64,000 nucleotides of DNA from an uncultured Ignavibacteriales bacterium (GTDB taxonomy: Bacteria > Zixibacteria > MSB-5A5 > GN15 > FEB-12): NCBI GenBank assembly GCA_964526835.1, contig CAZGMK010000003.1:83436-147435 (forward strand), in the 5' to 3' direction. A program made the position numbers and the translations under genes. Position 1 is the stretch's first letter. Each line of letters starts with the position of its first letter. The notes under the pieces are model-generated. The model did no database searches, was not told the origin of the DNA, and worked only from the letters and a program-made list of their open reading frames with translations. Shown in pieces: positions 356 through 34,975 of this stretch.

Positions 356-1339
356 ATGCTCGAAATGATAATCATATCGTCGCTCAAGGTTGCTGTCGTT
401 GTCGGCGCGGTCCTCACGGCCTGTGCTTATTCGACTTACCTGGAGCGCAAAGTGGTCGGTCATTTGCAGCATCGCATTGGTCCAAGTTACGCCGGACCGT
501 ATGGCCTACTGCAACCTATAGCCGATGCGGTGAAGCTGGTTTTCAAGGAGGACATTGTTCCCAGCCGGGCCGAGCGGATCACTTATTTGCTCGCACCCAT
601 AGTGGCTTTTGTTCCCCCGCTGCTCACTTTTGCGGTGGTTCCGTTCGCTCCCGACGGCGAGCTGTTCGGCTATGAAATCCAGGGTGTCATTTCGGACCTC
701 AACATCGCCCTGCTGTATATCTTCGCGATTGGTTCACTGGAAGTCTACGGAATCGTCCTGGCCGGTTGGTCGTCCGGTTCGAAGTACTCGTTGCTCGGTG
801 GAATACGTTCCTCGGCCCAGATGATCTCATATGAGATCGGCTATGGTCTGTCGATAATAGGGGTTCTGTTGATTGCCAACACGCTTTCGCTTCGTGAGAT
901 TGTGGAGCAGCAGTCCTCGGTTGGTGATTGGTTCATTTTCCGCCAGCCGGTGGCCTTCTTCCTATTCCTGGCCTGCGCCATTGCGGAGACAAACCGCGCT
1001 CCGTTTGATATGCCGGAGGCGGAGTCGGAGTTGGTCGGCGGCTACCATACCGAGTATTCATCGATGCGCTTTGCCACCTTCTTCATAGGCGAATACGCCG
1101 CGATGCTGGCCGCTTCAGCTTTGGCCGCAACGCTGTTTCTGGGAGGTTGGCAGGGTCCATGGCTGCCGGGCCTGGTCTGGTTCCTTATCAAGGTATTTGT
1201 TTTCATGTTTTTCTATATATGGCTGCGGGCGACCTTTCCGAGATTCCGTTACGACCAGCTCATGAATTTCGGCTGGAAAGTCTTGTTCCCGCTGGCCATG
1301 TTGAATACTATAGTCACGGCCATAATTGTAATGACGTGA
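356..1339 (+). CDS. nuoH: NADH-quinone oxidoreductase subunit H
   Basis: 327 aa polytopic protein with the classic NuoH/ND1 motifs GPYGLLQPIADAVKLVFKED and ETNRAPFDMPEAESELV. Confidence 0.95.
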   Translation: MLEMIIISSLKVAVVVGAVLTACAYSTYLERKVVGHLQHRIGPSYAGPYGLLQPIADAVKLVFKEDIVPSRAERITYLLAPIVAFVPPLLTFAVVPFAPDGELFGYEIQGVISDLNIALLYIFAIGSLEVYGIVLAGWSSGSKYSLLGGIRSSAQMISYEIGYGLSIIGVLLIANTLSLREIVEQQSSVGDWFIFRQPVAFFLFLACAIAETNRAPFDMPEAESELVGGYHTEYSSMRFATFFIGEYAAMLAASALAATLFLGGWQGPWLPGLVWFLIKVFVFMFFYIWLRATFPRFRYDQLMNFGWKVLFPLAMLNTIVTAIIVMT

Positions 1340-1355
1340 TCGGAGCGGCAGGACG

Positions 1356-1862
1356 ATGAGAGAAGTAGCCAAGGCATTTGTAAACGTCCTCTTCAGGATG
1401 CCGGTCGGGTTCTGGGTGACCTTCAAGCACCTGTTCCGCAAACCGGTGACGCTGGATTATCCGCGCAAGAAGAAGCCTATGGCGCCGCGTTACCGCGGGA
1501 AGCACTATCTCGAACGGTACGATGACGGGACCGAGCGATGTGTATGCTGTGGTTTGTGCGCCGCCGCTTGTCCCGCCGATGCGATCTACATGGAGCCGGA
1601 GGAGAACGAAAAGGGCGAACGACAGGCGAAGATCTACGAGATAAACCTCATCCGATGTATCTTCTGTGGTTTCTGCGAAGAGGCTTGCCCGGAGGAGGCG
1701 ATCTTCCTCGGGCACGAGTATGAGTTCTCCGCCTACGATCGTAACTCGTTTATCTACACGAAGGAAGAGATGCTGGTTCCGCATCCGCGCAAGGACAACC
1801 CATTCAAACGCATCTATCGCCGGGTGCGAAAAGCCTACGGAGTGACGGACAAACCGAAATGA
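1356..1862 (+). CDS. nuoI: NADH-quinone oxidoreductase subunit I (2x[4Fe-4S])
   Basis: Two ferredoxin motifs, CVCCGLCAAACP and CIFCGFCEEACP. Lies between nuoH and nuoJ. Confidence 0.95.
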   Translation: MREVAKAFVNVLFRMPVGFWVTFKHLFRKPVTLDYPRKKKPMAPRYRGKHYLERYDDGTERCVCCGLCAAACPADAIYMEPEENEKGERQAKIYEINLIRCIFCGFCEEACPEEAIFLGHEYEFSAYDRNSFIYTKEEMLVPHPRKDNPFKRIYRRVRKAYGVTDKPK

Positions 1863-2446
1863 CCATCGACACGATCATATTCGCCGTTTCGGCCATAATT
1901 GCAATCTTCGGTGCGGTCATGATGATCGCCCAGCGCAATCCCGTGGCTTCCGTCCTGTATCTCATCCTCTCAATGGTCGCGCAGGCGGTCCTGTACATTC
2001 AGTTGAGTGCGGTGTTCATGGCTGTTATCCTGCTGATTGTTTACGCCGGCGCGATCCTGGTTCTCTTCCTTTTTGTCATCATGCTGCTTAACCTGCGTGG
2101 TACCGAGGACCTGGGGCAGGAGAGCTACCCGATGAGGACAGGCGCCAAAGTTATCCTGGCCGGGCTGTTCTTTGTCGAAGGTACATTCGTGGTCAAAAGC
2201 GGGTTCTTCCCGGAGGCCGGCCCGACCGGCATGCTTCAGTCCATGCCCGAGACCTTCGGGAGCGTAGAAGCCGTGGCCGAGTTGCTGTTTACGAAGTACC
2301 TGTATCCTTTCGAGTTGACATCGATTCTGCTGCTTTCGGCCATCGTCGGGGCAGTGGTTCTGGCGAAGCGTTTCCGGGAGAACTCGGAGCCGACCGTGGG
2401 CATCGAGTCGCAAGATGCAACCAACGACGTTGAGGCAGGAGGCTGA
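1859..2446 (+). CDS. nuoJ: NADH-quinone oxidoreductase subunit J
   Basis: ATGA overlap with the nuoI stop. Hydrophobic ND6-like protein in conserved operon position. Confidence 0.9.
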   Translation: MTIDTIIFAVSAIIAIFGAVMMIAQRNPVASVLYLILSMVAQAVLYIQLSAVFMAVILLIVYAGAILVLFLFVIMLLNLRGTEDLGQESYPMRTGAKVILAGLFFVEGTFVVKSGFFPEAGPTGMLQSMPETFGSVEAVAELLFTKYLYPFELTSILLLSAIVGAVVLAKRFRENSEPTVGIESQDATNDVEAGG

Positions 2447-2447
2447 T

Positions 2448-2750
2448 ATGGTCGGCGTTCCCGCCTACTTGATCGTCGCCATGGTGCTGTTTGCTATAGG
2501 TACTGTTGGCGTATTGATCAGTCGCAACCTGATCATCCTGTTCATGTCCATTGAGTTGATGCTCAATGCCGCTAATCTGGGTCTTATTGCGTTTTCCCGG
2601 GCGCTGAACATCACCGACGGGCATGCCATCGTGTTCCTGGCGCTGACTGTCGCGGCCGCCGAGGCGGCGGTCGGCCTCGCGCTGATAATCACGGTCTTCC
2701 GCAATCGGGAGACAATAAGTGTGGACCGCTACAACCTGATGAAATGGTGA
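2448..2750 (+). CDS. nuoK: NADH-quinone oxidoreductase subunit K
   Basis: 100-aa 3-TM ND4L-like protein (..LMLNAANLGLIAFS..). I chose ATG 2448, which is preceded by GGCAGGAGG, over the upstream in-frame ATG at 2415 that overlaps nuoJ. Confidence 0.9.
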   Translation: MVGVPAYLIVAMVLFAIGTVGVLISRNLIILFMSIELMLNAANLGLIAFSRALNITDGHAIVFLALTVAAAEAAVGLALIITVFRNRETISVDRYNLMKW

Positions 2751-2764
2751 GGCGATAGACAATC

Positions 2765-4702
2765 ATGGCGGACTATCTGTTCCTGGTTCCACTGCTGCCG
2801 CTGATCGGCGTTTTGATCAACGGTTTGCTGCTCGGACGTCTGTCGCGGTCGGTCGTCAACCTGGTGGCATGTGCGACGGTTGGCCTCTCCTTTGTCCTCT
2901 CGGCTTTGCTGTTCTTCGAACTACGGAGCCTTCCATCCGATTCGCGGATTATTGAGCAGGTTCTGTTTACATGGATTCCCTCCGGAGCGCTGAAGGTCAA
3001 CATCGGTTTTCTTCTGGATCCTCTGTCGGCCGTGATGATCCTGGTGGTGAGCGGAGTGGGTTTTCTCATTCATGTGTATTCAACCGGCTACATGGCTCAC
3101 GATCCGGGCTTCGGCCGGTATTTTACGTATCTGAACCTGTTCACCTTCGCCATGCTGACCCTTGTCCTGGCCGATAATTACCTGCTAATGTTCGTGGGCT
3201 GGGAAGGAGTCGGGCTGTGTTCATACTTGCTGATCGGCTTCTGGTATGAGCGCAAATCGGCCAGTGATGCCGGCAAGAAGGCCTTCATTGTCAACCGAAT
3301 CGGTGACTTCGGTTTCCTTATCGCGATGTTCATCATCTTCTGGCAGGTCGGCTCGCTCGATTTTCTGACAGTCATGGAGACCGCTCCTCATGTCTTCATT
3401 GCGGGCGGCGGCCTCATCACTGCCGCGTGCATCCTGATGTTCGTGGGGGCAACAGGCAAGTCGGCTCAGATACCTCTCTATGTTTGGCTGCCAGATGCCA
3501 TGGAGGGCCCGACCCCGGTCTCGGCTCTGATCCATGCCGCGACGATGGTGACCGCGGGGGTTTATATGATCGCGCGCTCGAATGTCCTGTACCTGATGGC
3601 CCCCGATGCCCTGGGAGTCGTGGCCGTCATCGGCGCCGCGACCGCCCTGTTCGCCGCCACCATCGGGCTCGCTCAGAACGACATCAAGCGTGTCCTGGCC
3701 TATTCCACCGTCAGTCAGTTGGGATACATGTTCCTGGCCTGCGGTGTGGCTGCCTTTACCGCCGGGATATTTCACCTGATGACCCATGCTTTCTTCAAGG
3801 CGTTGCTGTTCCTGGCCTCGGGGGCTGTTATCCACGCGATGTCCGATGAGCAGGATATGCGCAAGATGGGCAATCTGAGGAAGTATCTGCCCGTCACCTA
3901 TATCACCATGCTGATCGCCACTCTGGCCATCAGCGGCATCCCCGGATTCAGCGGCTTCTTCTCCAAGGATGAGATTCTGTGGAAGTCCTTCTCCTCCGAT
4001 CACGGTCACTGGCTCCTCTGGCTGATTGGCTTCGTTACGGCCGGCCTCACGGCGTTCTACATGTTCCGCCTTATCTATCTTACGTTTCACGGTCAGGAGC
4101 GTATGGACGAGCACACGCGCGAACATATCCATGAGGCGCCCAGGTCAATGACTGTTCCCCTGATGGTGCTGGCGGTGTTGTCGGTAGTTGGCGGTTGGGT
4201 CGGGATTCCGCACATCTTCGGAGTGACGAATTACTTCGAGCATTGGCTGGAGCCGGTCATGGCAGGCCCTTCCCATGAGGCCGCTGTTCACGCTCTGGCG
4301 GCCAGCGGCGCCGACACCGGGATGGAGTGGTTGCTGATGGTGCTGTCGGTGGTGCTTGTGCTCACGGCCATATTCGCCGCTCGCAAGATATACAAGTCTT
4401 CGCCGGAGCTGGCCACCAGGCTGAGGGAGAGGATGTCCGGTGTTCATCGCGTGCTGCTTAACAAATACTATGTCGATGAGTTCTATCATGCGGTCGTGGT
4501 TCGTCCGGTCGTGGGCGGATCGATCTTCCTCTGGAAGATTGTGGATGTAGTCCTTATCGACGGCCTGATCAACGGCGCGGCGGCAGTTTACGGCGACATC
4601 TCGCAGCTACTGCGCCGGGCTCAGACCGGTCGCATTCGCAGCTATGCGACTGTATTTGTCTTTGGGGTCGTCGCGGTGTTGGCGTTCTACGTGTGGCGAT
4701 AG
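2765..4702 (+). CDS. nuoL: NADH-quinone oxidoreductase subunit L
   Basis: 645 aa antiporter-like subunit with WEGVGLCSYLLIGFW and SAQIPLYVWLPDAMEGPTPVSALIHAATMV. Confidence 0.95.
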   Translation: MADYLFLVPLLPLIGVLINGLLLGRLSRSVVNLVACATVGLSFVLSALLFFELRSLPSDSRIIEQVLFTWIPSGALKVNIGFLLDPLSAVMILVVSGVGFLIHVYSTGYMAHDPGFGRYFTYLNLFTFAMLTLVLADNYLLMFVGWEGVGLCSYLLIGFWYERKSASDAGKKAFIVNRIGDFGFLIAMFIIFWQVGSLDFLTVMETAPHVFIAGGGLITAACILMFVGATGKSAQIPLYVWLPDAMEGPTPVSALIHAATMVTAGVYMIARSNVLYLMAPDALGVVAVIGAATALFAATIGLAQNDIKRVLAYSTVSQLGYMFLACGVAAFTAGIFHLMTHAFFKALLFLASGAVIHAMSDEQDMRKMGNLRKYLPVTYITMLIATLAISGIPGFSGFFSKDEILWKSFSSDHGHWLLWLIGFVTAGLTAFYMFRLIYLTFHGQERMDEHTREHIHEAPRSMTVPLMVLAVLSVVGGWVGIPHIFGVTNYFEHWLEPVMAGPSHEAAVHALAASGADTGMEWLLMVLSVVLVLTAIFAARKIYKSSPELATRLRERMSGVHRVLLNKYYVDEFYHAVVVRPVVGGSIFLWKIVDVVLIDGLINGAAAVYGDISQLLRRAQTGRIRSYATVFVFGVVAVLAFYVWR

Positions 4703-4714
4703 AGGGAAGAGTTT

Positions 4715-6289
4715 ATGGAAGATCACATTCTGACATTGATTACATTCTTCCCGACCCTCGGGGCCGCCCTGCTGCTGCTCGTTCCGAAGCAGCAACACGA
4801 CAGCATACGCTCGATCAGCCTGATCGTGGCTTTTGTGACGATGCTGCTGTCGTTTCTGCTGTGGGGAATGTTCGATCCGTTGGCCAGCGGTATGCAGTTC
4901 GAAGTCAACACTGCCTGGATCAGCAGCTTCGGCATAAGCTATCATCTCGGCATAGACGGCATCTCGTTGCTGCTCATCATACTGACTTCGATTCTCACGG
5001 TCATTTGCATCATCTTCTCCTGGAAGTCTATCACCGACGGGGTAAAGGGGTTCTTCATCTCGATGCTTCTGCTCGAGACCGGTATGATCGGAGTCTTCTG
5101 CGCGCTCGATCTGTTCATGTTCTATGTTTTCTGGGAAGTGATGCTTGTCCCGATGTACTTCATCATCGGAGTGTGGGGCGGACCTCGCCGAATCTATGCC
5201 GCCATCAAGTTCGTGCTGTTTACAATGTTCGGGTCCCTGCTGATGCTGGTCGCCGTGCTGTGGGTCCTCTTCGAGTATCAGAAATTCGCCGGTGTCTACA
5301 CCTTCGACATGATGAAGCTGGCCGAAATGCCGATCGACTACCAGGCGCAAATATGGCTATTCGGCGCCTTCGCGCTCGCCTTTGCCATCAAGGTGCCTCT
5401 CTGGCCTCTGCATACCTGGCTCCCCGATGCTCATGTTCAGGCGCCGACAGCCGGCTCGGTCATACTGGCGGGGGTGCTGCTGAAAATGGGCACGTACGGC
5501 TTCCTTCGTATATGCCTGCCGATGTTCCCCGATGCCAGTGTTGCGGCGGTACCGCTGATCGGCGTGCTGTCGATAATCGCGATCATTTACGGCGCCCTGG
5601 TGGCTATGGTCCAGAAAGATGTCAAGTCGCTGGTGGCTTTCTCTTCGGTTTCCCACATGGGATTCTGTATGCTGGGCATGTTCGCGCTCAACACTCAAGG
5701 CCTCCAGGGTTCGGTCATGCAGATGATCAACCACGGAGTATCGACAGGGGCGCTCTTTCTTGTGGTAGGTATGATCTACGATCGCAGGCACACGAGAATG
5801 ATCAGCGAGTTCGGCGGGATCGCCAAGGTGATGCCGTTCTACTCGGCGGTGTTCATGATAGTGATGTTGTCGTCGATCGGCCTGCCGTTCACCAACGGCT
5901 TCGTCGGCGAGTTCCTGGTGCTGTTGGGCGTTTTCAAGGCGAATGCGGTCTTCGGTGTACTGGCGGCGTCGGGTGTGATTCTGGCCGCCTGTTACATGCT
6001 CTGGATGTACCAGCGCGTGATATTCGGCAAGCTAACGAATCCGGCCAACGAGAAACTTACCGATATCAACCTGCGCGAGAAACTTACGGTCGTGCCGCTG
6101 GTGCTGCTGATTTTCTGGATCGGTATCTACCCGAAGCCGCTATTGGATCGTATTGAGCCGGCGGTTCGTGGAATCCTGCAGCAAATGACTAAAGCGCATA
6201 CGGTTCAAATCGATCCGGATCGCGGCGTGATAAAACCCGTGGACAGCGATACCTGGACTATCGAGTCGCTGGTCGATAGAGGCAAGTGA
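4715..6289 (+). CDS. nuoM: NADH-quinone oxidoreductase subunit M
   Basis: 524 aa with PLWPLHTWLPDAHVQAPTAGSVILAGVLLKMGTYG, an ND4-type motif. Confidence 0.95.
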   Translation: MEDHILTLITFFPTLGAALLLLVPKQQHDSIRSISLIVAFVTMLLSFLLWGMFDPLASGMQFEVNTAWISSFGISYHLGIDGISLLLIILTSILTVICIIFSWKSITDGVKGFFISMLLLETGMIGVFCALDLFMFYVFWEVMLVPMYFIIGVWGGPRRIYAAIKFVLFTMFGSLLMLVAVLWVLFEYQKFAGVYTFDMMKLAEMPIDYQAQIWLFGAFALAFAIKVPLWPLHTWLPDAHVQAPTAGSVILAGVLLKMGTYGFLRICLPMFPDASVAAVPLIGVLSIIAIIYGALVAMVQKDVKSLVAFSSVSHMGFCMLGMFALNTQGLQGSVMQMINHGVSTGALFLVVGMIYDRRHTRMISEFGGIAKVMPFYSAVFMIVMLSSIGLPFTNGFVGEFLVLLGVFKANAVFGVLAASGVILAACYMLWMYQRVIFGKLTNPANEKLTDINLREKLTVVPLVLLIFWIGIYPKPLLDRIEPAVRGILQQMTKAHTVQIDPDRGVIKPVDSDTWTIESLVDRGK

Positions 6290-6291
6290 CA

Positions 6292-6513
6292 ATGGCTGAT
6301 GTGATTATATATACCAAGGCGGGCTGTCCGTACTGCGCGGCGGCGAAAAAGCACTATGCGGAAAACGGTGTGGCCTACGATGAGGTCGACATTCACAATA
6401 CGCCGGGGGCCAGGGACAAGGTCATTGAACTGACCGACGGTGAACGGATTGTTCCGGTGATCCTGGACCGCGGTGAATTGAAAATCGGATTCGGTGGCGG
6501 ATGAGGGTTTTAG
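6292..6513 (+). CDS. Glutaredoxin-like protein, candidate selenoprotein (TGA 6502-6504 read as Sec; ...GFGGG-U-G-F-stop)
   Basis: Grx fold with CPYC near the N-terminus (MADVIIYTKAGCPYCAAAKK..). The conventional ORF stops at TGA 6502-6504, but the frame continues GGG TTT TAG. A hairpin follows 11 nt after the TGA. An alternative GTG start at 6286 overlaps the nuoM stop (GTGA). If the TGA is a plain stop, the end is 6504. Confidence 0.6.
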
Positions 6514-6515
6514 CT

Positions 6516-6535
6516 TCGGCGACGGTCGTCGTCGG
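6516..6535 (+). promoter_or_regulatory. Candidate bacterial SECIS-like hairpin (8-bp stem, GGUC tetraloop)
   Basis: Stem 6516-6523 pairs with 6528-6535 (U-G, C-G, G-C, G-U, C-G, G-C, A-U, C-G). Loop GGUC is 6524-6527. The stem begins exactly 11 nt after the TGA. Confidence 0.5.
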
Positions 6536-6547
6536 TTCTGAGTAAAT

Positions 6548-7996
6548 ATGATAGACTTCACTTCGGCATCTATAGACTTCGGCATGCTGGCGCCCGAAAT
6601 CGCGCTGATAGCAGCCGCATTCGTCATTCTTCTGACATCGTCTCTGCGATCGGTTTCGCGCTTGGCCCCGGTCTTTGCTCTCATCGGACTGGCTGTCTCG
6701 CTCTTCCTTGCGGTTGGGCAATGGGGAAATCAGGCATCCGGCTTCTTCGGGATGGTTACCTGCGATGACTACGGGACGGCCTTCAAAGTCATCTTCGCAG
6801 TGATCTCCATCATCACGCTTTTTATCGCTCACCGCTATCTTGCGGTAAAGGGGATAAACCGGGCCGAGTTCTACGCCCTGTTGCTTATATCGACCATGGG
6901 CATGATGGTCATGGCTAACAGCACGGACCTGGTCGTTATGTTCCTCGGGCTCGAGATAATGTCGGTGCCCCTCTATGTCATGGCCGCATTCGCCCGCAGG
7001 TCGCTCATATCGAACGAAGCAGGCCTGAAGTACTTTGTCATGGGCGCCTTCGCCAGCGGCTTCCTGCTGATGGGTATAACTCTGGTCTTCGGCGCTTCAG
7101 AAACCACTGACCTGCGCCGTCTGGTGGCCGATTTCAGCTACATAATGGCCAGTAACCGTGAGCTGCTCTATGCCGGGTCCGCCCTCATGCTGGTTGGATT
7201 CTGCTTCAAGGTCGCCGCGGTTCCCTTCCATACATGGGTGCCCGATGTGTATCAGGGTGCGCCCACGCCGGTAACGGCCTTCTTCTCGGCCGGGCCTAAG
7301 GCGGCAGGATTCGCTGTCATGCTTCGCATATTCTTGTTTGGCCTGGAGCAGGTCGATATTCTTTCGACAACCTTCTGGGTCCTTGCGGTACTAACCATGA
7401 CAGTGGGTAACGTATTGGCGCTCCGACAGGATAACGTCAAGCGCATGCTTGCCTATTCGTCGATCGCCCACGCAGGCTATATCTTGATAGCCCTGGCGGT
7501 AGGAGGTTCGGAGGCCATTTCCGCAGCCATCTTCTATCTGGTGGGCTACGCCATGTTCAACCTGGGTGGCTTTGCGGTGATAACCCTGCTCGAGACTCGA
7601 TCGGGATGTCGATCCGACTTCAGTGAACTCTCCGGGCTGTCCAGGGCCAACCCTTACCTGGCCGGGGTCCTTGCGCTGTTCATGTTTGCGCTCTCTGGTT
7701 TCCCCCCGACGGTCGGATTCTTCGGTAAGTTCTATATCTTTTCGGCCGCTGTTAAGGCCGGATTCATCTGGCTGGCCATAATCGGCGTCCTGAATTCATT
7801 CGTTTCGGTCTATTACTATCTTCGGGTGGTCAAGGCAGCTTATCTTGACCAGAGCGAGTCAGCATTCATTCCGGTCACTTATTCGACGAGCATTGTCCTG
7901 GCGCTCATCATAACCGCTGCTGGTACGATGGGATTGGGTCTCTGGCCGCAGCATTTTCTGAAGCTATCGCAGCAGGCACTATTCGCCTTCCTGTAG
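6548..7996 (+). CDS. nuoN: NADH-quinone oxidoreductase subunit N
   Basis: 482 aa ND2-like protein with AAVPFHTWVPDVYQGAPTPVTAFFSAGPKAAGF. Confidence 0.95.
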   Translation: MIDFTSASIDFGMLAPEIALIAAAFVILLTSSLRSVSRLAPVFALIGLAVSLFLAVGQWGNQASGFFGMVTCDDYGTAFKVIFAVISIITLFIAHRYLAVKGINRAEFYALLLISTMGMMVMANSTDLVVMFLGLEIMSVPLYVMAAFARRSLISNEAGLKYFVMGAFASGFLLMGITLVFGASETTDLRRLVADFSYIMASNRELLYAGSALMLVGFCFKVAAVPFHTWVPDVYQGAPTPVTAFFSAGPKAAGFAVMLRIFLFGLEQVDILSTTFWVLAVLTMTVGNVLALRQDNVKRMLAYSSIAHAGYILIALAVGGSEAISAAIFYLVGYAMFNLGGFAVITLLETRSGCRSDFSELSGLSRANPYLAGVLALFMFALSGFPPTVGFFGKFYIFSAAVKAGFIWLAIIGVLNSFVSVYYYLRVVKAAYLDQSESAFIPVTYSTSIVLALIITAAGTMGLGLWPQHFLKLSQQALFAFL

Positions 7997-8277: not shown

Positions 8278-8487
8278 CTATAGCATGCGGAAGTAGTAAC
8301 AGGGTTGGGGGCCACCCTGGAACATGTAGCTGACCAGGTAGACCAGATCGGCAATATCGATATCGCCGATGCAGTTGACATTGGCCGACTCGTAGGGGAC
8401 AGGCGGCGGGCCGCCCTGAAACATGAAAGTGACCAGGTAGACCAGATCCGCAATGTCCACGCCTCCGCCGGAACCATCGACATCGCC
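8278..8487 (-). repeat. Twin dockerin-like (EF-hand type) repeat module at the protease C-terminus
   Basis: GDVDGSGGGVDIADLVYLVTFMFQGGPPP ... GDIDIADLVYLVSYMFQGGPQP. DNA cores at 8321-8350 and 8420-8449 are near-identical to cores at 62889-62918 and 62990-63019. Confidence 0.65.
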
Positions 8488-11013
8488 GGCCACCACCCAC
8501 TCGCGATCGGTGAAGTAGAAGCGAACCGCTTCTCCCGGCCCGACGACGTGTTCGGGGATGTCGCCCGCATTGACGTAACTCAAGCCTTTGCAGCCGTCAC
8601 TCGCCACGCCTATCAGGCAGTTGTCCTCGAGTCCGCTGACCCCGAGGTCGGCGTACTGGAAAACAATGGATCCGTCGACTGTCAGAATCGCTTCAAAGTT
8701 CAAGGTGGTATCGCTCGGGTCGTTGAAGCTGCCCGGATGGTACCATTGAATGACCAGGGTGTCGTATTGCGGATCATTCCACCTGTAAATGCCGCCGTCA
8801 GGCACCGCTATCGTATCGAATATCAGATCTGTCCAGAAAGGAGCGATGATGGTGTTGAACGGCGCCCCAGGTATGTCGATGCCGCTGAAGTAGCCGTTGA
8901 CGTTCAGACTCGTGTCGGTGAACGACAGCCCACCGTTGACACCGATGTAGACGCGGTTGAAGGTGGTGTCGTAGAATGGAAACTTGAACCCGATATTGAA
9001 AGGGCCGACGCTTCCGTCGTCGAGCTTGTTGGTGGCGCCGCCGTGATAGAAATTGTCGAAACTGATCCTGGTTCCGAGGGTCCGGGCGTCGATCCAGCTA
9101 TACTCCGGCCCCCCTGAGTCTCCCGTCTTCCCGGCGGAGTAGGTTGAGTCGCTGCAGGGCACGGTCAGATACACGGGGAGCCACAACGTGGCATCGAGGC
9201 TGCCGCCCGAGGCCCCCCAGTTGACTTCGACAATACCTCGATATCGCTCGACTTGCTCCACCAGGACAGTGGCGTCGATCGTGACCGATAAGAGCATCGA
9301 ATCTGCCGCGCCGATTGTGCCGCTCGCCGGTGCGACGCTAAGCCAGTCGACAACCTTGACCAGGCTGTCGCTGTCGGTGGCCGTGAAATCAATCGCCTGC
9401 GAGCCGGAGCGGTTCCTGAGCCAAATGCCGATGTCGAGGATAGTGCTCTGATCGACCATCGTATCAATGAGGACAGGTTCGGCATAGAGCGATGGTGGCG
9501 ACTCAAGCTGGGCGATCGCCGCTTGCAGATCGGGGCGGGGCCCGATGTGTTCGGATGAATCACCCTGCTGGGGGCTGCCGGTGGCTACCAGGGCATCGCG
9601 TATCATATCGGAAGTCATGGATATGCCGTAAGTCTCCTGGTGGTATCCTTGCAGGCAGGCGGCGGCGCCGGTGACAATCGGGGAGGCGGAGGAAGTTCCG
9701 CTGAAGAACGCCGTATAGTACTGATTGCGATCGCCGTCGCCGTCAAACAAGTTGCCGTAGCCACAGGTATAGACTCCCGATCCATAGCCCTGCATGTTAA
9801 CTCGTTCGCCATAATTCGAGAAGCTCTGGCGCTGCCGGTCCTGTCCTGAGGCGGGTGGGTATCCTGCACCGACGATAATCGCGTGTGAGTTCCTATAGGT
9901 CGTGTCGAAGAGCGACTCATAGAGTGGATCGTCGAAGTCCTCGGCGCCGTTTCCAGCCGCCTGTACAACTACAATCCCATTCGCCCAGGCATAGAGAATG
10001 GCGTCATAGTTGGCCTGCCAGTACTCCATACAGACATAGCCGAGCTGGTCCGGGCGGGACTGAAAGTTGTATCGCGGGCCGGGAGCGTGCAGTTCTATCA
10101 GAATCAGGTCGCCGGATTCGAGGTTATCGATGGCGCTGTACAGGGCCTGGGCGGTCGACTGGTAGGCCACCGACACCATCCCGATGTCCGCACCAGGACA
10201 TATACCCGTCACTCCGTAGCCATTGTCCCCCGCGATCATCTGGCCGATCACCGCTGTTCCGTGATCCGACGTTGACCCGCCACCTGGATATGGGCCGATG
10301 ACGTTCCCGACAGCCTTTCCCAGGTCCTCGTGGGTAGTCTGCCAGTTTATTTCGATATCGACTATCTTGACGCCGGTCCCATCGCCGCCGGCCAGGGTAT
10401 TGGCGTAATCGGCGTCAATCCCCTCGGGCGCCGCCTCGCGGTAATCCTGATACTCCTGATAGTCGGGCGTCGGAGGGTATATGTCCCCGGCCTCCTCCGG
10501 GAGCGGCTGCACATAGGCGATCTCGACCACGTCCAGAGCATTGAGCTGGTTTACCAGCGCCTGTGCCTTATTGGGTTCGCTGATCTCAATTTCGTAGTAT
10601 GTGTTGAGGTCGGCCAGTTCCTGCCCCGAGGCAGCCTGCAGCCTCCTGCGGTCCGCATTCAGACGGTCCTCACTCCAGCCTGCGAACAAACGTTCGACGC
10701 GCCCGGCAGTGTAGGGTTCAAGCACTTGCCTGACGTCCTCCAGCGAAGTCGACGGAGATACAAGCCTGCCACTGCGAAGTCGGGTCTGGGTCTCATCACG
10801 GAATTTGACAACCACATGTGAGATTCGAGTCCCGGCGTCGATCACGGCCCGGGCTGGTTTCTCGGGTAGTGTTCGCTGTCGGAGATAGTGATGGCTTCGG
10901 TCGGACCGTTCCAAGCCGAGTCCAGACACAGCCCATGCGGCTACCGCAGTTAGCAGCACCAGCATGCCTGTCAGGGCAACAGCCCGAAAATCATGATTCC
11001 GATCGGCCTTCAT
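8278..11013 (-). CDS. Secreted subtilisin-like (S8) serine peptidase with C-terminal twin dockerin-like repeats
   Basis: N-terminal signal/TM segment. Catalytic motifs are DHGTAVIG (His), VQAAGNG (Asn) and SGTSSASPIVTGAAACL (Ser). A beta-rich middle region follows, and the tail carries two D-x-D-G/DIADLVYLV-x-[FY]MFQGGP repeats. Confidence 0.85.
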   Translation of the reverse strand: MKADRNHDFRAVALTGMLVLLTAVAAWAVSGLGLERSDRSHHYLRQRTLPEKPARAVIDAGTRISHVVVKFRDETQTRLRSGRLVSPSTSLEDVRQVLEPYTAGRVERLFAGWSEDRLNADRRRLQAASGQELADLNTYYEIEISEPNKAQALVNQLNALDVVEIAYVQPLPEEAGDIYPPTPDYQEYQDYREAAPEGIDADYANTLAGGDGTGVKIVDIEINWQTTHEDLGKAVGNVIGPYPGGGSTSDHGTAVIGQMIAGDNGYGVTGICPGADIGMVSVAYQSTAQALYSAIDNLESGDLILIELHAPGPRYNFQSRPDQLGYVCMEYWQANYDAILYAWANGIVVVQAAGNGAEDFDDPLYESLFDTTYRNSHAIIVGAGYPPASGQDRQRQSFSNYGERVNMQGYGSGVYTCGYGNLFDGDGDRNQYYTAFFSGTSSASPIVTGAAACLQGYHQETYGISMTSDMIRDALVATGSPQQGDSSEHIGPRPDLQAAIAQLESPPSLYAEPVLIDTMVDQSTILDIGIWLRNRSGSQAIDFTATDSDSLVKVVDWLSVAPASGTIGAADSMLLSVTIDATVLVEQVERYRGIVEVNWGASGGSLDATLWLPVYLTVPCSDSTYSAGKTGDSGGPEYSWIDARTLGTRISFDNFYHGGATNKLDDGSVGPFNIGFKFPFYDTTFNRVYIGVNGGLSFTDTSLNVNGYFSGIDIPGAPFNTIIAPFWTDLIFDTIAVPDGGIYRWNDPQYDTLVIQWYHPGSFNDPSDTTLNFEAILTVDGSIVFQYADLGVSGLEDNCLIGVASDGCKGLSYVNAGDIPEHVVGPGEAVRFYFTDREWVVAGDVDGSGGGVDIADLVYLVTFMFQGGPPPVPYESANVNCIGDIDIADLVYLVSYMFQGGPQPCYYFRML

Positions 11014-28935: not shown

Positions 28936-29358
28936 CTACTTGATTGTTTTGCGAATAGTTACAGTAGTGCCATCCTCGGACGGCTCGATATCCACCTCGT
29001 CCATCAGCGAGCGCACAATGAAAATACCCCGTCCGACGTCTTTCAGCAGGTTCTCGTCGCTGATGGGATCATCAACCTCATCCGGGTTGAAACCGGTTCC
29101 CCTGTCGCGAACCGTAATAATGGCCTGATTATCTTGCCTGGTCACGTTCACCTCAACCGGTGTCTCGCCCGCAGCCCGGTTGCCGTGAAAGATGGCGTTA
29201 TTGACCAATTCGGAAACAGATATCGCAATGTCGGCGATGACCGACTCCGACGCACTCCATCCCCGCAGCAGCCCCTCCACGAACATGTCCACGTCGGTCA
29301 GGAACTTCTGGTCGGAGGGCACCACAATCGTATCGCCTTTGATTACCGGCTTGTCCAT
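28936..29358 (-). CDS. Anti-sigma-factor-type Ser kinase (RsbW/SpoIIAB-like, HATPase_c_2)
   Basis: N-box SELVNNAIFHGN and G-box VRDRGTGF. I preferred ATG 29358 (GAGG upstream); an alternative GTG lies at 29403. Confidence 0.75.
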   Translation of the reverse strand: MDKPVIKGDTIVVPSDQKFLTDVDMFVEGLLRGWSASESVIADIAISVSELVNNAIFHGNRAAGETPVEVNVTRQDNQAIITVRDRGTGFNPDEVDDPISDENLLKDVGRGIFIVRSLMDEVDIEPSEDGTTVTIRKTIK

Positions 29359-29441
29359 ATAGCTGGCCTCGATTGCAGGAAAGGCAGGTTGCCTTCCAGC
29401 CACCTGCCGTATTCAGTGTCTAGTACAGGCGCCCGTATCGG

Positions 29442-29780
29442 CTATTCGAACGACTCAACGGCGTCTTCAACGGAATCGTAAGCCTCAAACACACCGACCA
29501 GCTTCGTGATCGTCAAGAGCGACTGGATCTTCTCGGTGATTCGGGCCAGTTTGAGCTTGCCGTCGCTGTTACGAAGCGTGGTATAGCCCTGAATCAGAAT
29601 CCCGAGTCCGGTCGAGTTCATCCATTCGACCCCGGCCAAATCGATGATCACCTTCTTCTTATCCGCCTTGATGCACTCGTACAGCTTGTCGTGCAGAAGA
29701 CTGGCATCCGGGCCACCCATGATTTTACCCTCGGGCTGCAGAATCACGATGCCACTCTCCTCACGGTAGTTCAATTTCAT
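29442..29780 (-). CDS. STAS-domain anti-anti-sigma factor (RsbV/SpoIIAA-like)
   Basis: 112 aa. ..VIIDLAGVEWMNSTGLGILI.. contains the conserved phosphorylatable Ser context. Confidence 0.85.
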   Translation of the reverse strand: MKLNYREESGIVILQPEGKIMGGPDASLLHDKLYECIKADKKKVIIDLAGVEWMNSTGLGILIQGYTTLRNSDGKLKLARITEKIQSLLTITKLVGVFEAYDSVEDAVESFE

Positions 29781-30030
29781 ACCGCATACGCCTCCGCTGT
29801 CGGCCTGTTATCGCTTTCTCTTACGCGCCACATTCAATCTGTGTTTCCGCAAAGAGGCTCCTGTAGTGTCTTCATCCGGCTTGCCCTCACCGGCTGGCGG
29901 GCCGGATTCACGCAGGCACGAAGTAACCCCACAATTACCCGTACCGAGAGTCGCAAGTCAAGGTCTTTCTCGTCTTGCGCGTGCGGTAAGGTGTTAATTC
30001 ATAAGGGGTTCCGCTTTGGCGGCAAGAGAA

Positions 30031-30052
30031 GGGGCGGCCGGGAAGCCGCCCC
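30031..30052 (-). terminator. Candidate intrinsic terminator after the OFOR-flavoprotein operon
   Basis: GGGGCGGC-cgggaa-GCCGCCCC, an 8-bp GC stem lying 10 nt beyond the stop at 30062. On the minus strand it is followed by UUCUCUU. Confidence 0.5.
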
Positions 30053-30061
30053 TGACTGGTT

Positions 30062-30526
30062 TCAGTCAATGTTGTGCGTCAGCTTGCCTGCCTGCTCACG
30101 GCGTGAGGTAGGTTTGGCCGGACGATAGTCCAGGGCCTTGGTGGGGCAGAAGTGCGCGCACACCGGATCGCCCCCGCAGAGGTCGCACTTGACCATCATG
30201 TCGTGCTGGCTGTCGTATAAGGTACAGCCGAACGGACAGGCGGCCTCACAGGCGCGACACTTGACGCACTTGTCCTGATCCAGTTCGATGGCCCCGGTTT
30301 CCTCGTTGCGCGACAGGGCGTCAACCAGGCACGATTTGACACACGCCGGATCATCGCAATGCAGACAGACCACTGGAGTATAAAGGTCCTTCGCACCGCC
30401 GGGCAGGGGATAGATACGGCTGCGGCTGGGTTTATTGCCGATCTGGTGGGCGAAAGCGCATGCCAACTCACACGTGCGGCATCCGATACACAGGCTCGGG
30501 ATAACCATGAGACGTGACTTGATCAC
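30062..30526 (-). CDS. CooF/DmsB-like polyferredoxin (four Cys clusters)
   Basis: Cys motifs CIGCRTCELAC, CLHCDDPACVKSC, CVKCRACEAACP and CDLCGG..CAHFCP. The GTG start at 30526 is preceded by GAGGAGG and overlaps the upstream stop (GTGA). The longer ORF to 30601 is unlikely. Confidence 0.8.
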   Translation of the reverse strand: MIKSRLMVIPSLCIGCRTCELACAFAHQIGNKPSRSRIYPLPGGAKDLYTPVVCLHCDDPACVKSCLVDALSRNEETGAIELDQDKCVKCRACEAACPFGCTLYDSQHDMMVKCDLCGGDPVCAHFCPTKALDYRPAKPTSRREQAGKLTHNID

Positions 30527-31308
30527 GACGTCACCTCCTCGTCGCTTCGGCTCCACCTGACAATGCTGCCCATCCTCAGGGAAATCTCCTTTCGATGACA
30601 CTCATCACAGATATCGAAGTACTCTCGCGGTATATTGCGCATCTTGCTCAGCGTGTCGGCGAAAGCTTCAGTGATAGTCAATTTGCCGCACTTGTGGCAC
30701 TTGATGCGATTGAATTGCTTGCCCCAGATGGTTCGGGTATCGCCCGAGTCTTCGTACTCTATGAAGTTCGTCGGGCAATTTTCGGCGCAGCTCAAACAGC
30801 CGACGCAGTCCGGCGGCGCCTGCTTCAAAGGGGGCGCCACTTCGCGACCGTGACCTCGGTCGACCATGCTGATCGCGTGGAAGCCGAGGGTGTCACAGAT
30901 GCGGGTGCAGATGGCGCACAGGATGCAATTGTCGCCGTCGGGAATCGTCTCGTAGCTGGTCTGGGTGACTCCATACTCGGCCGCCAGCTTGCGAATCTGC
31001 GTTGAGTTCGGACAGCGTGCCAGTTGCAGATCGAGCACCTGTCGCCTCAGTTCGTCGACTTCTTCGGTGTGGGTCCGGACAATCAAGCCGTCCTCGACCG
31101 GATACAGACATGATGTCACGTGCTTGACCCAGCCGTCCCATTCCCTCCGCGTGATCTCCACCATGCAGAGACGGCAGGCTCCGTATGGCTCCACCGCGTC
31201 GTGATGGCAGAGCGCCGGTACATCAATGCCCATCCGCTTGATCACGGCCAGGAGCATTTCGCCTTCTTTGGCTTCGGTTGCGCGTCCATTTATAGTGAGT
31301 TTAACCAT
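30523..31308 (-). CDS. HoxU / NuoG-N-terminal-like iron-sulfur protein ([2Fe-2S] plus 2x[4Fe-4S], no catalytic domain)
   Basis: N-terminal MVKLTINGR..LCHHD..GACRLCMVEI is a Fer2_4-type domain. Followed by CILCAICTRIC and CVGCLSCAENCP. There is an additional CHKC...CDEC pair at the C-terminus. Confidence 0.75.
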   Translation of the reverse strand: MVKLTINGRATEAKEGEMLLAVIKRMGIDVPALCHHDAVEPYGACRLCMVEITRREWDGWVKHVTSCLYPVEDGLIVRTHTEEVDELRRQVLDLQLARCPNSTQIRKLAAEYGVTQTSYETIPDGDNCILCAICTRICDTLGFHAISMVDRGHGREVAPPLKQAPPDCVGCLSCAENCPTNFIEYEDSGDTRTIWGKQFNRIKCHKCGKLTITEAFADTLSKMRNIPREYFDICDECHRKEISLRMGSIVRWSRSDEEVTS

Positions 31309-31319
31309 GCCGACTTCTC

Positions 31320-33176
31320 CTACCGCACAATGACGGCATCACGTTGGCAGATCGCCTTGCATGCGCCGCACTTGTCGCATCGTTCCTGGTCGATGATATG
31401 CACTTCGTTTTTCTTGCCGCTGATGCACTTCTGGGCGCAGGCGTGGATGCAGGCCATGCACCCGTCGCATTTCTCCGGGTCGATCTCGTATGTAATAAGG
31501 GCGCGGCAGACCCCGGCCGGGCAGCGTCGGTCGCGAATGTGGGCCAGGTACTCATCCCGGAAATAGCGGATGGTACTCAAAAACGGGTTGGGGCCCGACT
31601 TGCCGAGACCGCACAGCGAGCCGATGACAATCGACTTCGACAGCCGTTCCATCTTGTCCAGATCGTCTTCCGTGGCCCGTCCCTCGCTGATTGCAACAGC
31701 CAGAGCGTGAAGCTGGTAGAGTCCTTCACGACACGGGACGCATTTGCCGCAGGACTCATCGATGAGGAAACTCAGGAAGTACTTCGCCACGTCGACCACG
31801 CAGGTGTTTTCGTCCATGACGATCATGCCACCGGAACCCATCATCGAACCGGCCTGGGTGAGGGTGTCGAAGTCCACCGACAGGTCCAGCTTGTCCTCGG
31901 GCAGACAGCCGCCGGAAGGTCCACCGGTCTGCACCGCTTTGAAGGGACGACCTTCCAGCACGCCGCCGCCGATGTCGTAGATGATCTGGCGCAGGGTCGT
32001 GCCCATGGGTACTTCGATCAGCCCGCTGTTGCAGACCTTGCCTACCAGAGAGAAGGCCTTAGTCCCTGAACTCTTCGATGTTCCGATCGCGGCGAACCAG
32101 TCGCCGCCGTGTTCGATAATGAGCGGGACGTTGGCGTAGCTCTCGACATTGTTGAGAACCGTGGGCTTGTCAAACAGTCCCTTTTGCACCGAGCGGATGT
32201 ACTTGGCGCGCGGCTCGCCGACATTCCCGGCCACCGACTGCATGAGAGCAGACGATTCGCCGCAGACGAAGGCGCCCCCTCCCCGACTGATGCGAATGTC
32301 GAAATCGAATCCGGACCCGAGAATGTCCTCGCCGAGCAGACCCAGATCGCGGGCGTCCTCGATGGCCCTTTGCAGGTTGACGACCGCCAGGGGGTACTCC
32401 TCGCGGACGTAGATGTACCCCTCATGGGCCCCGACCGCCCAGGCTGCGATGATCATACCCTCGAGGACCGAGTGCGGATCACCTTCCATGATGGCGCGGT
32501 CCATAAACGCGCCCGGGTCGCCCTCGTCGCCGTTGCAGATGACGTAGTGCGGGGTTTCCTCAAGTCTGGCACAGGACTCCCACTTGCGTCCGGCAGGAAA
32601 CCCGCCGCCGCCACGACCCCGCAGGCCCGATATCTTGACCTCATTGATTACATCTTCGGCCTTCATCTTGGTCAATGCCTTAGCCGCACCGCCGTAGCCA
32701 CCAACCGCAATGTATTCCTCGATATCGCCCTGACGAATTCGTCCCAGGTTGCGCAGGGCCAGGCGCTGCTGGTTCTTGTAGAAGTCAATGTTGCGCCAGT
32801 CGCATATCTTGTTTCCCGTCCCGGGATCGGTGTAGAGGAGACGCTCGATTGTCTTCTTGCCGCGAATAGTCTCTTCGACGATCTCCTCAACATCTCCGGG
32901 GCGCACCCGGGTGTAGAAAATCCCCTCGGGTTCGATGACCACAAGCGGGCCGAACTGGCACAAACCATGGCAGCCGGTCTCGACCAGTGCTTCGACAGAG
33001 AAGTCCTTGATGCGTTTCTTATTGAGAACGGCATTGAATTTGTCGCTCACATCCCGCGCCCCGCTGGCGAGGCATCCGGGCCCGCAACAGATCAACACCC
33101 GGCGAGAGTGTTTGGCCATCTTTGCCTGGCACTCTTTGCGATACTTCTGAAGCTGTTTGACCGATTCCATTCGCAT
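31320..33176 (-). CDS. NuoF/HydB/HoxF-like NAD(P)H-binding flavoprotein (Trx-like [2Fe-2S] N-domain, FMN/NADH core, C-terminal 2x[4Fe-4S])
   Basis: FMN site GLRGRGGGGFPAGRKWE. NADH site VICNGDEGDPGAFMDR. N3 cluster ESCGKCVPCREG..LCGLG. C-terminal CDGCMACIHAC and CDKCGACKAIC. ATG 33176 sits after GGAGG; a GTG at 33179 is also possible. Confidence 0.9.
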   Translation of the reverse strand: MRMESVKQLQKYRKECQAKMAKHSRRVLICCGPGCLASGARDVSDKFNAVLNKKRIKDFSVEALVETGCHGLCQFGPLVVIEPEGIFYTRVRPGDVEEIVEETIRGKKTIERLLYTDPGTGNKICDWRNIDFYKNQQRLALRNLGRIRQGDIEEYIAVGGYGGAAKALTKMKAEDVINEVKISGLRGRGGGGFPAGRKWESCARLEETPHYVICNGDEGDPGAFMDRAIMEGDPHSVLEGMIIAAWAVGAHEGYIYVREEYPLAVVNLQRAIEDARDLGLLGEDILGSGFDFDIRISRGGGAFVCGESSALMQSVAGNVGEPRAKYIRSVQKGLFDKPTVLNNVESYANVPLIIEHGGDWFAAIGTSKSSGTKAFSLVGKVCNSGLIEVPMGTTLRQIIYDIGGGVLEGRPFKAVQTGGPSGGCLPEDKLDLSVDFDTLTQAGSMMGSGGMIVMDENTCVVDVAKYFLSFLIDESCGKCVPCREGLYQLHALAVAISEGRATEDDLDKMERLSKSIVIGSLCGLGKSGPNPFLSTIRYFRDEYLAHIRDRRCPAGVCRALITYEIDPEKCDGCMACIHACAQKCISGKKNEVHIIDQERCDKCGACKAICQRDAVIVR

Positions 33177-33646
33177 CACTTCTTCCTCCGGTCTCGCAGC
33201 AGCTTCTTCATATGCGTGAGTTTGACCCCGCCATAAAATTTGTCATTGACGGCGACTACCGGCGCCATCGAGCAAGCGCCGACGCAGGCCACCTTCTCGA
33301 GCGTGTACTTGAGGTCGGGCGTCGTGTCTCCCGCCTTGATTCCCAACTCGTTCTCGAGACGTTCCACAATTTGCTGAGCGCCGCGAATGTGGCAGGTCGT
33401 ACCCATACAAACCCGAATGCACTTCTCGCCTCGCGGTACCAGGCTGAAGGCGTTGTAGAAAGTGGCCACCGAATAGACCTTGGACAAAGGGACGTCGAGT
33501 CGCTCAGCCGTCTTATGCAGTGCCTCTTCGGGCAGGTAATGATACTCCTGTTGCACATCCTGAAGCACCGCGATCAGCGATTCCCTGGTCTGTGGGTAGC
33601 GTTCGAAAATCGCGGGCAGTCTATCCAAATCCAACTCTGCTTTCAT
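33176..33646 (-). CDS. NuoE/HydC/HoxE-like [2Fe-2S] thioredoxin-fold subunit
   Basis: CMGTTCHIRG...CVGACSMAPVVAVND. ATGA overlap with the OFOR gamma gene stop. Confidence 0.85.
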   Translation of the reverse strand: MKAELDLDRLPAIFERYPQTRESLIAVLQDVQQEYHYLPEEALHKTAERLDVPLSKVYSVATFYNAFSLVPRGEKCIRVCMGTTCHIRGAQQIVERLENELGIKAGDTTPDLKYTLEKVACVGACSMAPVVAVNDKFYGGVKLTHMKKLLRDRRKK

Positions 33647-34212
33647 GCCTTGACCTTCTTGCTCTTCCCGGCCACTTTCCGGCCAAGTTTGAAGCCCTGC
33701 TCCAGGACCGCGAAGTTGACCTCCAGGACTTCCTTCTTCCTGGCCAGCTTCTCCTTGATGATTTCCCGCACCGTATCGACCTTGACCACCCCGGTTGCGC
33801 CGATGAAAGCACCGAGAACCACAACATTAGCCGCCCTGGCGTTACCTGCCTTCCTGGCCATATCATTAGCCGGCATCAGCAGTTCAGTTATGTCGTCGCG
33901 ATCGGTAGTGACGTCAATGAGTGAGCTGTTGACTATCGACAGCCCGCCGGGCTTGATCAGTGGAATGAATTTGTCAAATGAAGGACGATTGAAGACACAG
34001 GCACATTGCGGCTTCGTGATGATCGGCGACCCGATGCGATGGTCCGATACGACCACTGTGCAATAGGCGGTGCCTCCACGCATCTCCGGGCCGTAGCTGG
34101 GCAGCCAGGTAACGTGCTTGCCCTCGGCGATGCCTGAGTAGGCCAGAAGCTGGCCGGCGGTCAGGATCCCCTGGCCGCCGAACCCGGCGAAGGTGACTTC
34201 ATACTGTTCCAT
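33643..34212 (-). CDS. 2-oxoacid:ferredoxin oxidoreductase, gamma subunit
   Basis: FAGFGGQGILTAGQLLA..PSYGPEMRGGTA. ATG 34212 is preceded by GGAGGG and overlaps the beta-subunit stop (TAATG). Confidence 0.85.
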   Translation of the reverse strand: MEQYEVTFAGFGGQGILTAGQLLAYSGIAEGKHVTWLPSYGPEMRGGTAYCTVVVSDHRIGSPIITKPQCACVFNRPSFDKFIPLIKPGGLSIVNSSLIDVTTDRDDITELLMPANDMARKAGNARAANVVVLGAFIGATGVVKVDTVREIIKEKLARKKEVLEVNFAVLEQGFKLGRKVAGKSKKVKA

Positions 34213-34967: not shown

Positions 34968-34975
34968 AGGACACC

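Follow-up and report, generated by a model that had tools for sequence, protein, structure and literature searches.

Why does an operon for respiratory complex I contain a glutaredoxin-like gene whose reading frame meets a TGA, continues for just two sense codons to another stop, and is then followed by a hairpin? The question is raised by a stretch of 64,000 nucleotides from an uncultured Ignavibacteriales bacterium, placed by GTDB in the Zixibacteria (contig CAZGMK010000003.1 of assembly GCA_964526835.1, positions 83,436 to 147,435, forward strand); this whole stretch is called the window here, and positions are counted from its first letter. The source contig belongs to a metagenome assembly (samples SRR7048218-25). 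We consider it likely that positions 6292-6513 are a real gene for a 73-residue glutaredoxin of the Uxx-star family; the gene would be decoded with selenocysteine (Sec) at the TGA by means of the hairpin, it has become a fixed fifteenth cistron of the nuo operon, and its product probably has a thiol/selenol redox role.

The gene lies on the forward strand between nuoM (4715-6289, 524 amino acids, stop TGA at 6287-6289) and nuoN (6548-7996, 482 amino acids). The Pfam domain Proton_antipo_M is found in NuoN and, for NuoM, in the product of the identical gene in two loci (L001 and L085), and in 49 related loci the gene upstream has nuoM as its top match by blastx. According to the list of open reading frames (ORFs), nuoH, nuoI, nuoJ, nuoK and nuoL occupy 356-4702 on the same strand and in the same operon. 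The 10 kb upstream of the window hold only nuoA-G, immediately adjacent to it, a major facilitator superfamily transporter and two unannotated ORFs. The nuoA-N set is complete on the source contig, and the glutaredoxin gene is its fifteenth ORF (Pfam on L085).

As read from the sequence, the translation contains IIYTKAGCPYCAAAKK, with an N-terminal part MADVIIYTKAGCPYCAAAKK and a C-terminal part ELKIGFGGG, and it ends with GFGGG at the TGA at 6502-6504, the candidate Sec codon (residue 71). The frame then gives GGG (6505-6507) and TTT (6508-6510), for Gly-Phe, before the stop TAG at 6511-6513, so that the predicted gene has 73 codons if the TGA is Sec and reads MADV...GFGGG-U-G-F. The sequence and an alignment of homologues place a CPYC active-site motif, Cys12-Pro-Tyr-Cys15, at 6325-6336. 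A hairpin resembling a Sec insertion sequence (SECIS) occupies 6516-6535, and the ATG of nuoN at 6548 comes 34 nt past the TAG. An earlier note, made from the letters of the window alone, had described the position between nuoM and nuoN, the TGA-GGG-TTT-TAG ending and the hairpin 11 nt past the TGA, and each of these is found exactly where it was said to be. That note had also offered GTG at 6286-6288 as a possible start; this codon does overlap the nuoM stop, and an ATG does follow at 6292-6294, 2 nt past that stop, but the ATG is the likelier start because the homologues begin M-[AS]-[DE]-V, and the GTG was dropped in its favor.

The first evidence on the TGA comes from relatives. A scan of one genome per species yielded 80 loci, in which the reading frames were extended computationally past the first stop. 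In fifty distinct loci, the window's own and those of 49 species genomes, the gene adjoins NuoM and/or NuoN homologues, and we refer to these loci as nuo-type. The first stop is TGA in all fifty. It is followed in all fifty by a Gly codon, spelled GGA in 24, GGC in 12, GGT in 9 and GGG in 5, and then mostly by a Phe codon (TTC 21, TTT 18), with Ile, Tyr and Val codons in the remainder, while the second stop is TAA in 33, TGA in 10 and TAG in 7. Judged from these sequences, the two tail codons vary in the way that coding sequence does, and the mixture at the second stop is that of an ordinary true terminator. The conservation of TGA-NNN-NNN-stop among orthologues, which the earlier note had proposed as a check, thus extends to every nuo-type locus. 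A further 27 Uxx-star-type loci in other contexts, from Thermoleophilia, Acidobacteria, Chloroflexota and others, likewise all have TGA as the first stop, followed by two, three or five sense codons.

Five homologues (P0165, P0168, P0194, P0211 and P0214) have Cys in place of the TGA and end Cys-x-x-stop, for example as ...GGVGCAF, ...GFGCSF or ...GRGCAF; the genomic context of P0165 was uninformative, its contig being 999 bp long. A word-indexed search returned 372 close homologues, and 117 of the top 120 end in GFGGG, where the gene callers had thus taken a stop codon as the end. In public records such homologues, MBU0985064.1 (P0019) among them, go by the labels 'glutaredoxin family protein' or 'glutaredoxin 3'; they are given as 70 residues long, stopping at the TGA, and have no Sec annotation. 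TGA is also the normal stop of nuoM in the window, and the code is therefore the standard one; a reassigned genetic code is not the explanation. The comparative criteria for recoding are an invariant TGA, a varying true stop, synonymous change in the tail codons, a covarying hairpin (described below) and Cys-x-x-stop homologues, and all of them are found here. The TGA at 6502-6504 is thus probably decoded as selenocysteine, as had been proposed, and we infer actual Sec insertion at the UGA from this comparative evidence.

The hairpin supplies the second line of evidence. Its 8-bp stem pairs 6516-6523 (TCGGCGAC) with 6528-6535 (GTCGTCGG), includes two G-U pairs and closes on a loop at 6524-6527 that is GGTC in the DNA and GGUC in the RNA; the arms are UCGGCGAC and GUCGUCGG, respectively, and the first stem base stands 11 nt past the TGA. 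For 46 nuo-type loci, a segment of 56 nt that includes the TGA was aligned with MAFFT, without structural guidance, and RNAalifold recovered this stem from the alignment. In the columns of the window helix 84.3% of cells are paired, compared with 68.0% in column shuffles, and the covariation score is 0.553, compared with 0.253; none of 500 shuffles reached either value, and sliding the 3' arm by 1-3 columns lowers the score to 0.09-0.21. Double (compensatory) changes occur at all eight pairs, one of which appears as AU in 16 sequences, GC in 13, GU in 10 and UA in 6. Pairing at the inner six positions holds in 89-100% of the sequences, and the second G of the loop (6525 in the window) is nearly invariant. 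This covariation shows that the structure is under selection; it does not indicate what the hairpin binds.

The minimal E. coli fdhF SECIS begins 11 nt after the UGA and has a GGUC apical loop. The window hairpin is like that element and the consensus bacterial SECIS (bSECIS) in its small GC-rich stem, in its GGUC apical loop and in the G then G/U that opens the loop, with a spacing of 19 nt in the window. In the consensus, a loop of 3-9 nt caps a stem of 4-16 bp, a G stands in the first two loop positions and is usually followed by G or U, the UGA lies 16-37 nt from the loop, and the minimum free energy is -7.5 kcal/mol or lower (PMC13188914). The window element agrees with all four published constraints: its stem has 8 bp, its loop is GGUC, the UGA is 19 nt away from the loop, and its energy is -10.3 kcal/mol. 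The same holds for 38 of the 50 nuo-type loci and 21 of the 27 other Uxx-star loci, compared with 36 of the 629 stops (5.7%) at which other long ORFs of these loci end and 1.4% of shuffles. GGUC is the commonest loop among the nuo-type loci (21/50), where AGUU, CGUGN, GUG and GUU also occur, and 48 of the 50 loops contain a GU, its G standing 20-28 nt from the first base of the UGA. A hairpin of this kind also comes after the TGA of Uxx-star genes without nuoN as a neighbor, which ties the hairpin to the TGA rather than to nuoN. Rfam gave nothing at gathering score in the whole window, and near the hairpin only noise (E >= 1). Typical bacterial SECIS elements lie within the coding region (PMC13188914), whereas the window element, with no more than two codons left after the UGA, is untranslated and stands between two cistrons.

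The protein itself belongs to a family in which such an ending is expected. The earlier note had named an NCBI family called 'Uxx-star'; it exists, as NCBIfam NF041212 (Uxx-star family glutaredoxin-like (seleno)protein), and a profile search placed the 70-residue product above its curated cutoff, at 99.8 bits against 66. With the tail added as C-G-F (U being written as C for scoring) the protein reaches 107.8 bits and covers profile positions 1-70 of 70, the last of which is reached only when the tail is included. A Sec or Cys three residues before the stop (U-x-x-stop) is an Uxx-star trait, and the TGA GGG TTT TAG of the window gene has it. The NF041212 cutoff is also passed by nine representatives from other clades and contexts. 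A 2026 review (PMC13188914, citing Zhang & Gladyshev 2008 and Haft & Tolstoy 2025) lists four sub-families by name: UXX-star 1, UXX-star 2, UXX-star 3 and the HUGP/GUXX-star fusion. The window protein falls just short of UXX-star 1 (NF041114; 71.2 bits with the tail and 65.5 without, cutoff 72), a limit straddled by its clade, as other nuo-type members score 71.5-74.4 bits. It misses UXX-star 2 (NF041211; 78.7 vs 100), UXX-star 3 (NF047338; 68.9 vs 97) and the fusion (NF045501; 81.7 vs 325 bits) as well. The gene is thus a member of the umbrella Uxx-star family without a clear place in any named sub-family. It shares with the UXX-star families (NF041212) the glutaredoxin fold of about 70 residues, the CxxC, the predicted Sec three residues from the C-terminus and the SECIS-like hairpin past the stop codon, whereas its own clade is set apart by keeping the gene fixed between nuoM and nuoN.

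Models of classical glutaredoxins fit less well. Glutaredoxin 3 (Grx3; TIGR02181, 50.6 vs 90), NrdH (TIGR02194, 43.3 vs 85.75) and the YruB type (TIGR02196, 50 vs 88.55 bits) were all missed, and the Grx3, NrdH, YruB and mycoredoxin models score at about half of their cutoffs. The glutaredoxin fold that had been proposed is nonetheless agreed on by Pfam (PF00462 Glutaredoxin, 54 bits on the window protein), by an AlphaFold2 model and by Foldseek. The model, built with 25 homologues in the alignment, has a mean confidence (pLDDT) of 88.6 and the order beta1-alpha1-beta2-alpha2-beta3-beta4, followed by a low-confidence tail; C12, P13, Y14 and C15 are invariant among those homologues. Foldseek and phmmer searches against the PDB returned glutaredoxins, NrdH and the Bacillus cereus BC3987 mini-redoxin, none with such a tail. 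Mini-glutaredoxins of the NrdH, YruB and BC3987 types are the best solved structural relatives (TM score about 0.8, 29-38% identity, a common 'GF' motif in beta4), but they lack the Sec tail, and the window protein lies below the NrdH and YruB cutoffs.

How firmly is the gene tied to complex I? By the taxonomic labels of the records, the 49 other genomes with the nuoM-grx-nuoN arrangement comprise 23 Zixibacteria, 15 Ignavibacteria/Ignavibacteriales/Ignavibacteriaceae, one Calditrichota, one member of the FCB group and nine unclassified. NuoN is downstream in 49 of the 50 nuo-type loci including the window, that is, in 48 of the other genomes, the exception (L005) stopping at a contig edge; the check proposed in the earlier note, whether the gene stays in its place in relatives, thus comes out positive across these 49 species-level genomes. 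The junction with nuoM is mostly overlapping or no longer than 15 nt. The tail stop and the start of nuoN are separated by a spacer of mostly 30-44 nt, which leaves room for the hairpin and a ribosome-binding region but little else. By position and strand, the glutaredoxin gene is a conserved component of the nuo operon. We infer the link of its protein to complex I from operon membership alone. As an independent denominator, metagenome contigs from the Joint Genome Institute (JGI) were scanned with a NuoN alignment, giving 80 loci whose NuoN is 40-58% identical to that of the window. Only two of them (L095 and L098) carry the insertion, and the inserted gene ends in ...GFGGG-TGA-G-[F/I]-stop in both; the insertion is therefore specific to one clade and is not shared by nuo operons at large. 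In the remaining loci nuoM abuts nuoN or, in two cases, a different membrane-protein gene is inserted. These two (L127 and L132, at about 1000-2650) encode a polytopic membrane protein of 480-500 amino acids with the motif GDPPLFLGYLKG, and genes may have been inserted at the nuoM/nuoN junction repeatedly. Melioribacter roseus could be a cultured carrier of the nuoM-grx-nuoN arrangement: in its second ndh cluster JKLM are Mros0138-0135 and N is Mros0132, with two unnamed tags between ndhM and ndhN (PMC3534657). The genome papers of C. abyssi and M. roseus mention no glutaredoxin in their nuo clusters.

Uxx-star genes outside nuo operons have neighbors of other kinds. At L037:3132-6934 (Thermoleophilia) a Uxx-star gene ending AAGGG-U-x-I directly follows a 949-amino-acid ORF with heavy-metal P-type ATPase motifs and is also adjoined by a rhodanese-like-looking ORF; both neighbors were judged by reading the sequence and not by Pfam, and this context hints at metal or sulfur handling. 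Tails and hairpins similar to those of L037 are seen at L039, L049, L053, L066 and L067. In a Dehalococcoidia metagenome-assembled genome (MAG; L077, about 5590-6210) the Uxx-star domain appears to be fused to about 130 Cys-rich N-terminal residues in a 205-amino-acid ORF. At L079:3687-6219, from an Anaerolineae MAG (DAOUHB010000240.1), a Uxx-star gene that finishes ...GFDGY-TGA-G-V-TGA is preceded, at a distance of about 400 nt, by the end of a SelB homologue (tblastn 2e-66 with E. coli SelB), and this is the only locus where the family was seen to adjoin Sec machinery.

Several observations weigh against the reading of the window gene as a Sec-decoded component of complex I biology. The genes selA, selB and selD and a tRNA for Sec were not found in the 64-kb window, in the 10 kb upstream or at any nuo-type locus. 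This search used tblastn with E. coli SelA, SelB and SelD queries, which matched L079 alone, not a nuo-type locus, and ARAGORN, which detected no tRNA in the window and none but ordinary ones in 45 loci. A six-frame scan of the window with TGA taken as sense gave no convincing second selenoprotein candidate. An exposed, clade-specific Cys partner was sought in NuoM and NuoN and none was found; the sole near-invariant Cys of NuoM, at position 267 in the motif IRICMPMFP, is inside a transmembrane helix, and NuoN has none. Other family members have as neighbors an ORF that resembles a heavy-metal P-type ATPase by its motifs, a small ORF rich in Cys, or an aldehyde dehydrogenase-like ORF, and family chemistry is therefore not specific to complex I. 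For the hairpin, 12 of the 50 nuo-type loci fail a strict implementation of the bSECIS constraints, and the fold of 6495-6550 has an energy of -13.7 kcal/mol against -13.2 +/- 2.5 in dinucleotide shuffles (z = -0.21). By itself the window hairpin is thermodynamically unremarkable in GC-rich DNA. What had been said of its 8 bp, its GGUC loop and its distance from the TGA stood, with covariation added, but the single-sequence fold that had been suggested as a check is not exceptional, and the case for the hairpin therefore rests on the comparison with relatives.

One alternative is that the TGA terminates an ordinary glutaredoxin of 70 residues, in which case the hairpin would be an intercistronic element serving stability, processing or nuoN control and the extra codons would be meaningless. 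All public gene calls do stop at the TGA, one of them under the NCBI name 'glutaredoxin family protein', and the GFGGG end of nearly all of the top homologues, the unexceptional single-sequence fold and the failure to see Sec machinery in the regions searched agree with this explanation. A true stop, however, should vary as the second one does (TAA 33, TGA 10, TAG 7), whereas the first is always TGA (50/50); Gly is preserved although its codon takes all four synonymous forms, and the TTY codon alternates; TGA-x-x-stop and the hairpin also occur where no nuoN follows; Cys-x-x-stop homologues exist; and NF041212 spans the tail and gains 8 bits from it. An ordinary glutaredoxin is in our judgment very improbable. 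We find it scarcely credible that the UGA is instead read through without Sec, either by a near-cognate tRNA inserting Trp or Cys or as a leaky programmed stop, with the hairpin slowing termination. The failure to see Sec machinery in the regions searched would fit such read-through, as would a tail of just two residues, with which both products are nearly full length, but the hairpin has the features of a SelB-binding element (a small apical loop with G-U, 16-37 nt from the UGA), curators class the family as selenoproteins and include members with Cys, and selB adjoins one of its genes at L079.

The main functional rival to a thiol/peroxide role accepts a true selenoprotein but gives it a part in metal or metalloid handling, with Sec and CPYC as ligands and with the nuo position reflecting co-expression or a need for metal delivery or detoxification. 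In the UXX-star families Sec may serve as a metal ligand or bind unknown substrates (PMC13188914), the Thermoleophilia gene described above has its P-type ATPase-motif and rhodanese-like neighbors (by sequence reading only), and no thiol partner is seen in NuoM or NuoN. Against this, CPYC is the classical dithiol motif of glutaredoxins and the fold matches redox-active glutaredoxins and NrdH, 49 species genomes retain the nuo position, the gene being tightly coupled to nuoM, and no metal-handling gene was seen beside the nuo-type operons. We therefore hold a metal role to be unlikely, and prefer a Sec-decoded redox protein.

For this preferred reading the following course of events can be proposed. 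With the UGA in the A site, SelB-GTP and Sec-tRNA(Sec) would bind at the G-U loop of the hairpin at 6516-6535. Sec would be inserted and Gly-Phe added, and the ribosome would terminate at the UAG at 6511-6513 while already melting the hairpin, nuoN being initiated 34 nt beyond the tail stop. Failed Sec insertion would yield a 70-residue protein lacking U-G-F only. As the fifteenth cistron of nuoA-N, the glutaredoxin would be made together with the membrane arm of complex I.

In NrdH-type redoxins a WSGFRP loop after beta4 packs beside the CxxC. The chain of the window protein would end right after the 'GF' of beta4, and its Gly-rich tail, GFGGG-U-GF, would emerge where NrdH has this loop, beside the active site. 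From that position the selenol could reach Cys12/Cys15 and therefore exchange with the CPYC dithiol, by selenenylsulfide/dithiol exchange, in a three-centre thiol/selenol relay, and the protein would probably act at or near complex I, where it would repair or sense thiols or peroxides, most plausibly by reducing them when oxidised. Mammalian thioredoxin reductase, which ends in a Gly-Cys-Sec-Gly (GCUG) tail, offers an analogy for the relay, having Sec near the extreme C-terminus, a flexible Gly-containing tail and an adjacent dithiol centre, and failed Sec insertion is expected to give a near-full-length product there as well. It is, however, a flavoenzyme, whereas the window gene predicts a 73-residue glutaredoxin whose tail has no adjacent Cys, and the likeness is one of working principle only. 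NDUFA2 (B8), a thioredoxin-fold accessory subunit of mitochondrial complex I, is likewise a small thioredoxin-superfamily protein and is associated with complex I, as the window protein may be; NDUFA2 is, however, eukaryotic and has no Sec, and the likeness is one of superfamily. That the Sec-tailed glutaredoxin is a true extra subunit or docked redox module of complex I in the group of Zixibacteria, Ignavibacteria and Calditrichota is conceivable from the gene arrangement, though on balance doubtful; if true, it would mean a selenoprotein-containing complex I. Equally doubtful is the further idea, prompted by the place of the SECIS-like hairpin in the 34-nt spacer, that read-through dependent on selenium tunes the translation of nuoN, which encodes the last membrane subunit.

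Elsewhere in the window, a second, soluble NADH-dehydrogenase-like pair is encoded at 30523-33179 on the reverse strand. It consists of a 619-amino-acid NuoF-like protein (Complex1_51K, NADH_4Fe-4S and C-terminal ferredoxin domains) and a 261-amino-acid 2Fe-2S/4Fe-4S protein resembling the N-terminus of NuoG. The NuoG-like gene (30523-31308, reverse strand) was considered as the start of an FdhA broken by a TGA, and this was rejected, as the translation shows that the gene simply ends there. ORFs at 34212-36118 look like subunits of a 2-oxoacid:ferredoxin oxidoreductase (by appearance, not by Pfam). About 1.2 kb at roughly 29340-30520, between genes for an anti-sigma-factor-like protein and a 2Fe-2S protein, is without a convincing ORF on either strand and has no Rfam match. 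An S8 peptidase (8278-11013, reverse strand) and a Cys-rich protein cut by the window end (62854-63999, reverse strand) both finish with two copies of the motif D[IV][AS]DLVY[LM]V[ST][FY]MF.GGP.P, a dockerin-like tandem repeat covered by no Pfam match. A 1372-amino-acid secreted protein (48124-52242, reverse strand) has many Ig/fibronectin-like modules of about 100 residues with recurring '...YYWR.R...' strands, for which Pfam matches are weak.

The locus thus probably encodes a Sec-containing protein of a known family, in a respiratory setting that is conserved and, it seems, not previously described. The earlier claim of novelty survives in part: the placement in complex I operons seems not to have been described in the searchable literature, but the kind of protein is already known (NCBIfam; PMC13188914). 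We found no description of a Uxx-star gene inside a nuo operon in that literature, to which Haft & Tolstoy 2025 did not belong, and searches on Zixibacteria or Ignavibacteria together with selenocysteine or selenoprotein, and on selenoprotein glutaredoxins together with nuoM/nuoN, found nothing relevant. As public records end the gene at the TGA, a selenoprotein would have been missed systematically in the MAGs of the carrier phyla. The element would also be a clean natural case of a bacterial SECIS lying wholly outside the reading frame, between two cistrons. Complex I is the main respiratory enzyme and also a main source of reactive oxygen, and the gene has been retained as the fifteenth nuo cistron in 49 species-level genomes that bear three or more labels of phylum rank, which speaks for a redox accessory of complex I particular to this lineage. 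The gene offers a concrete, testable candidate for work on complex I, and it may provide a functional context for a selenoprotein family of unknown role.

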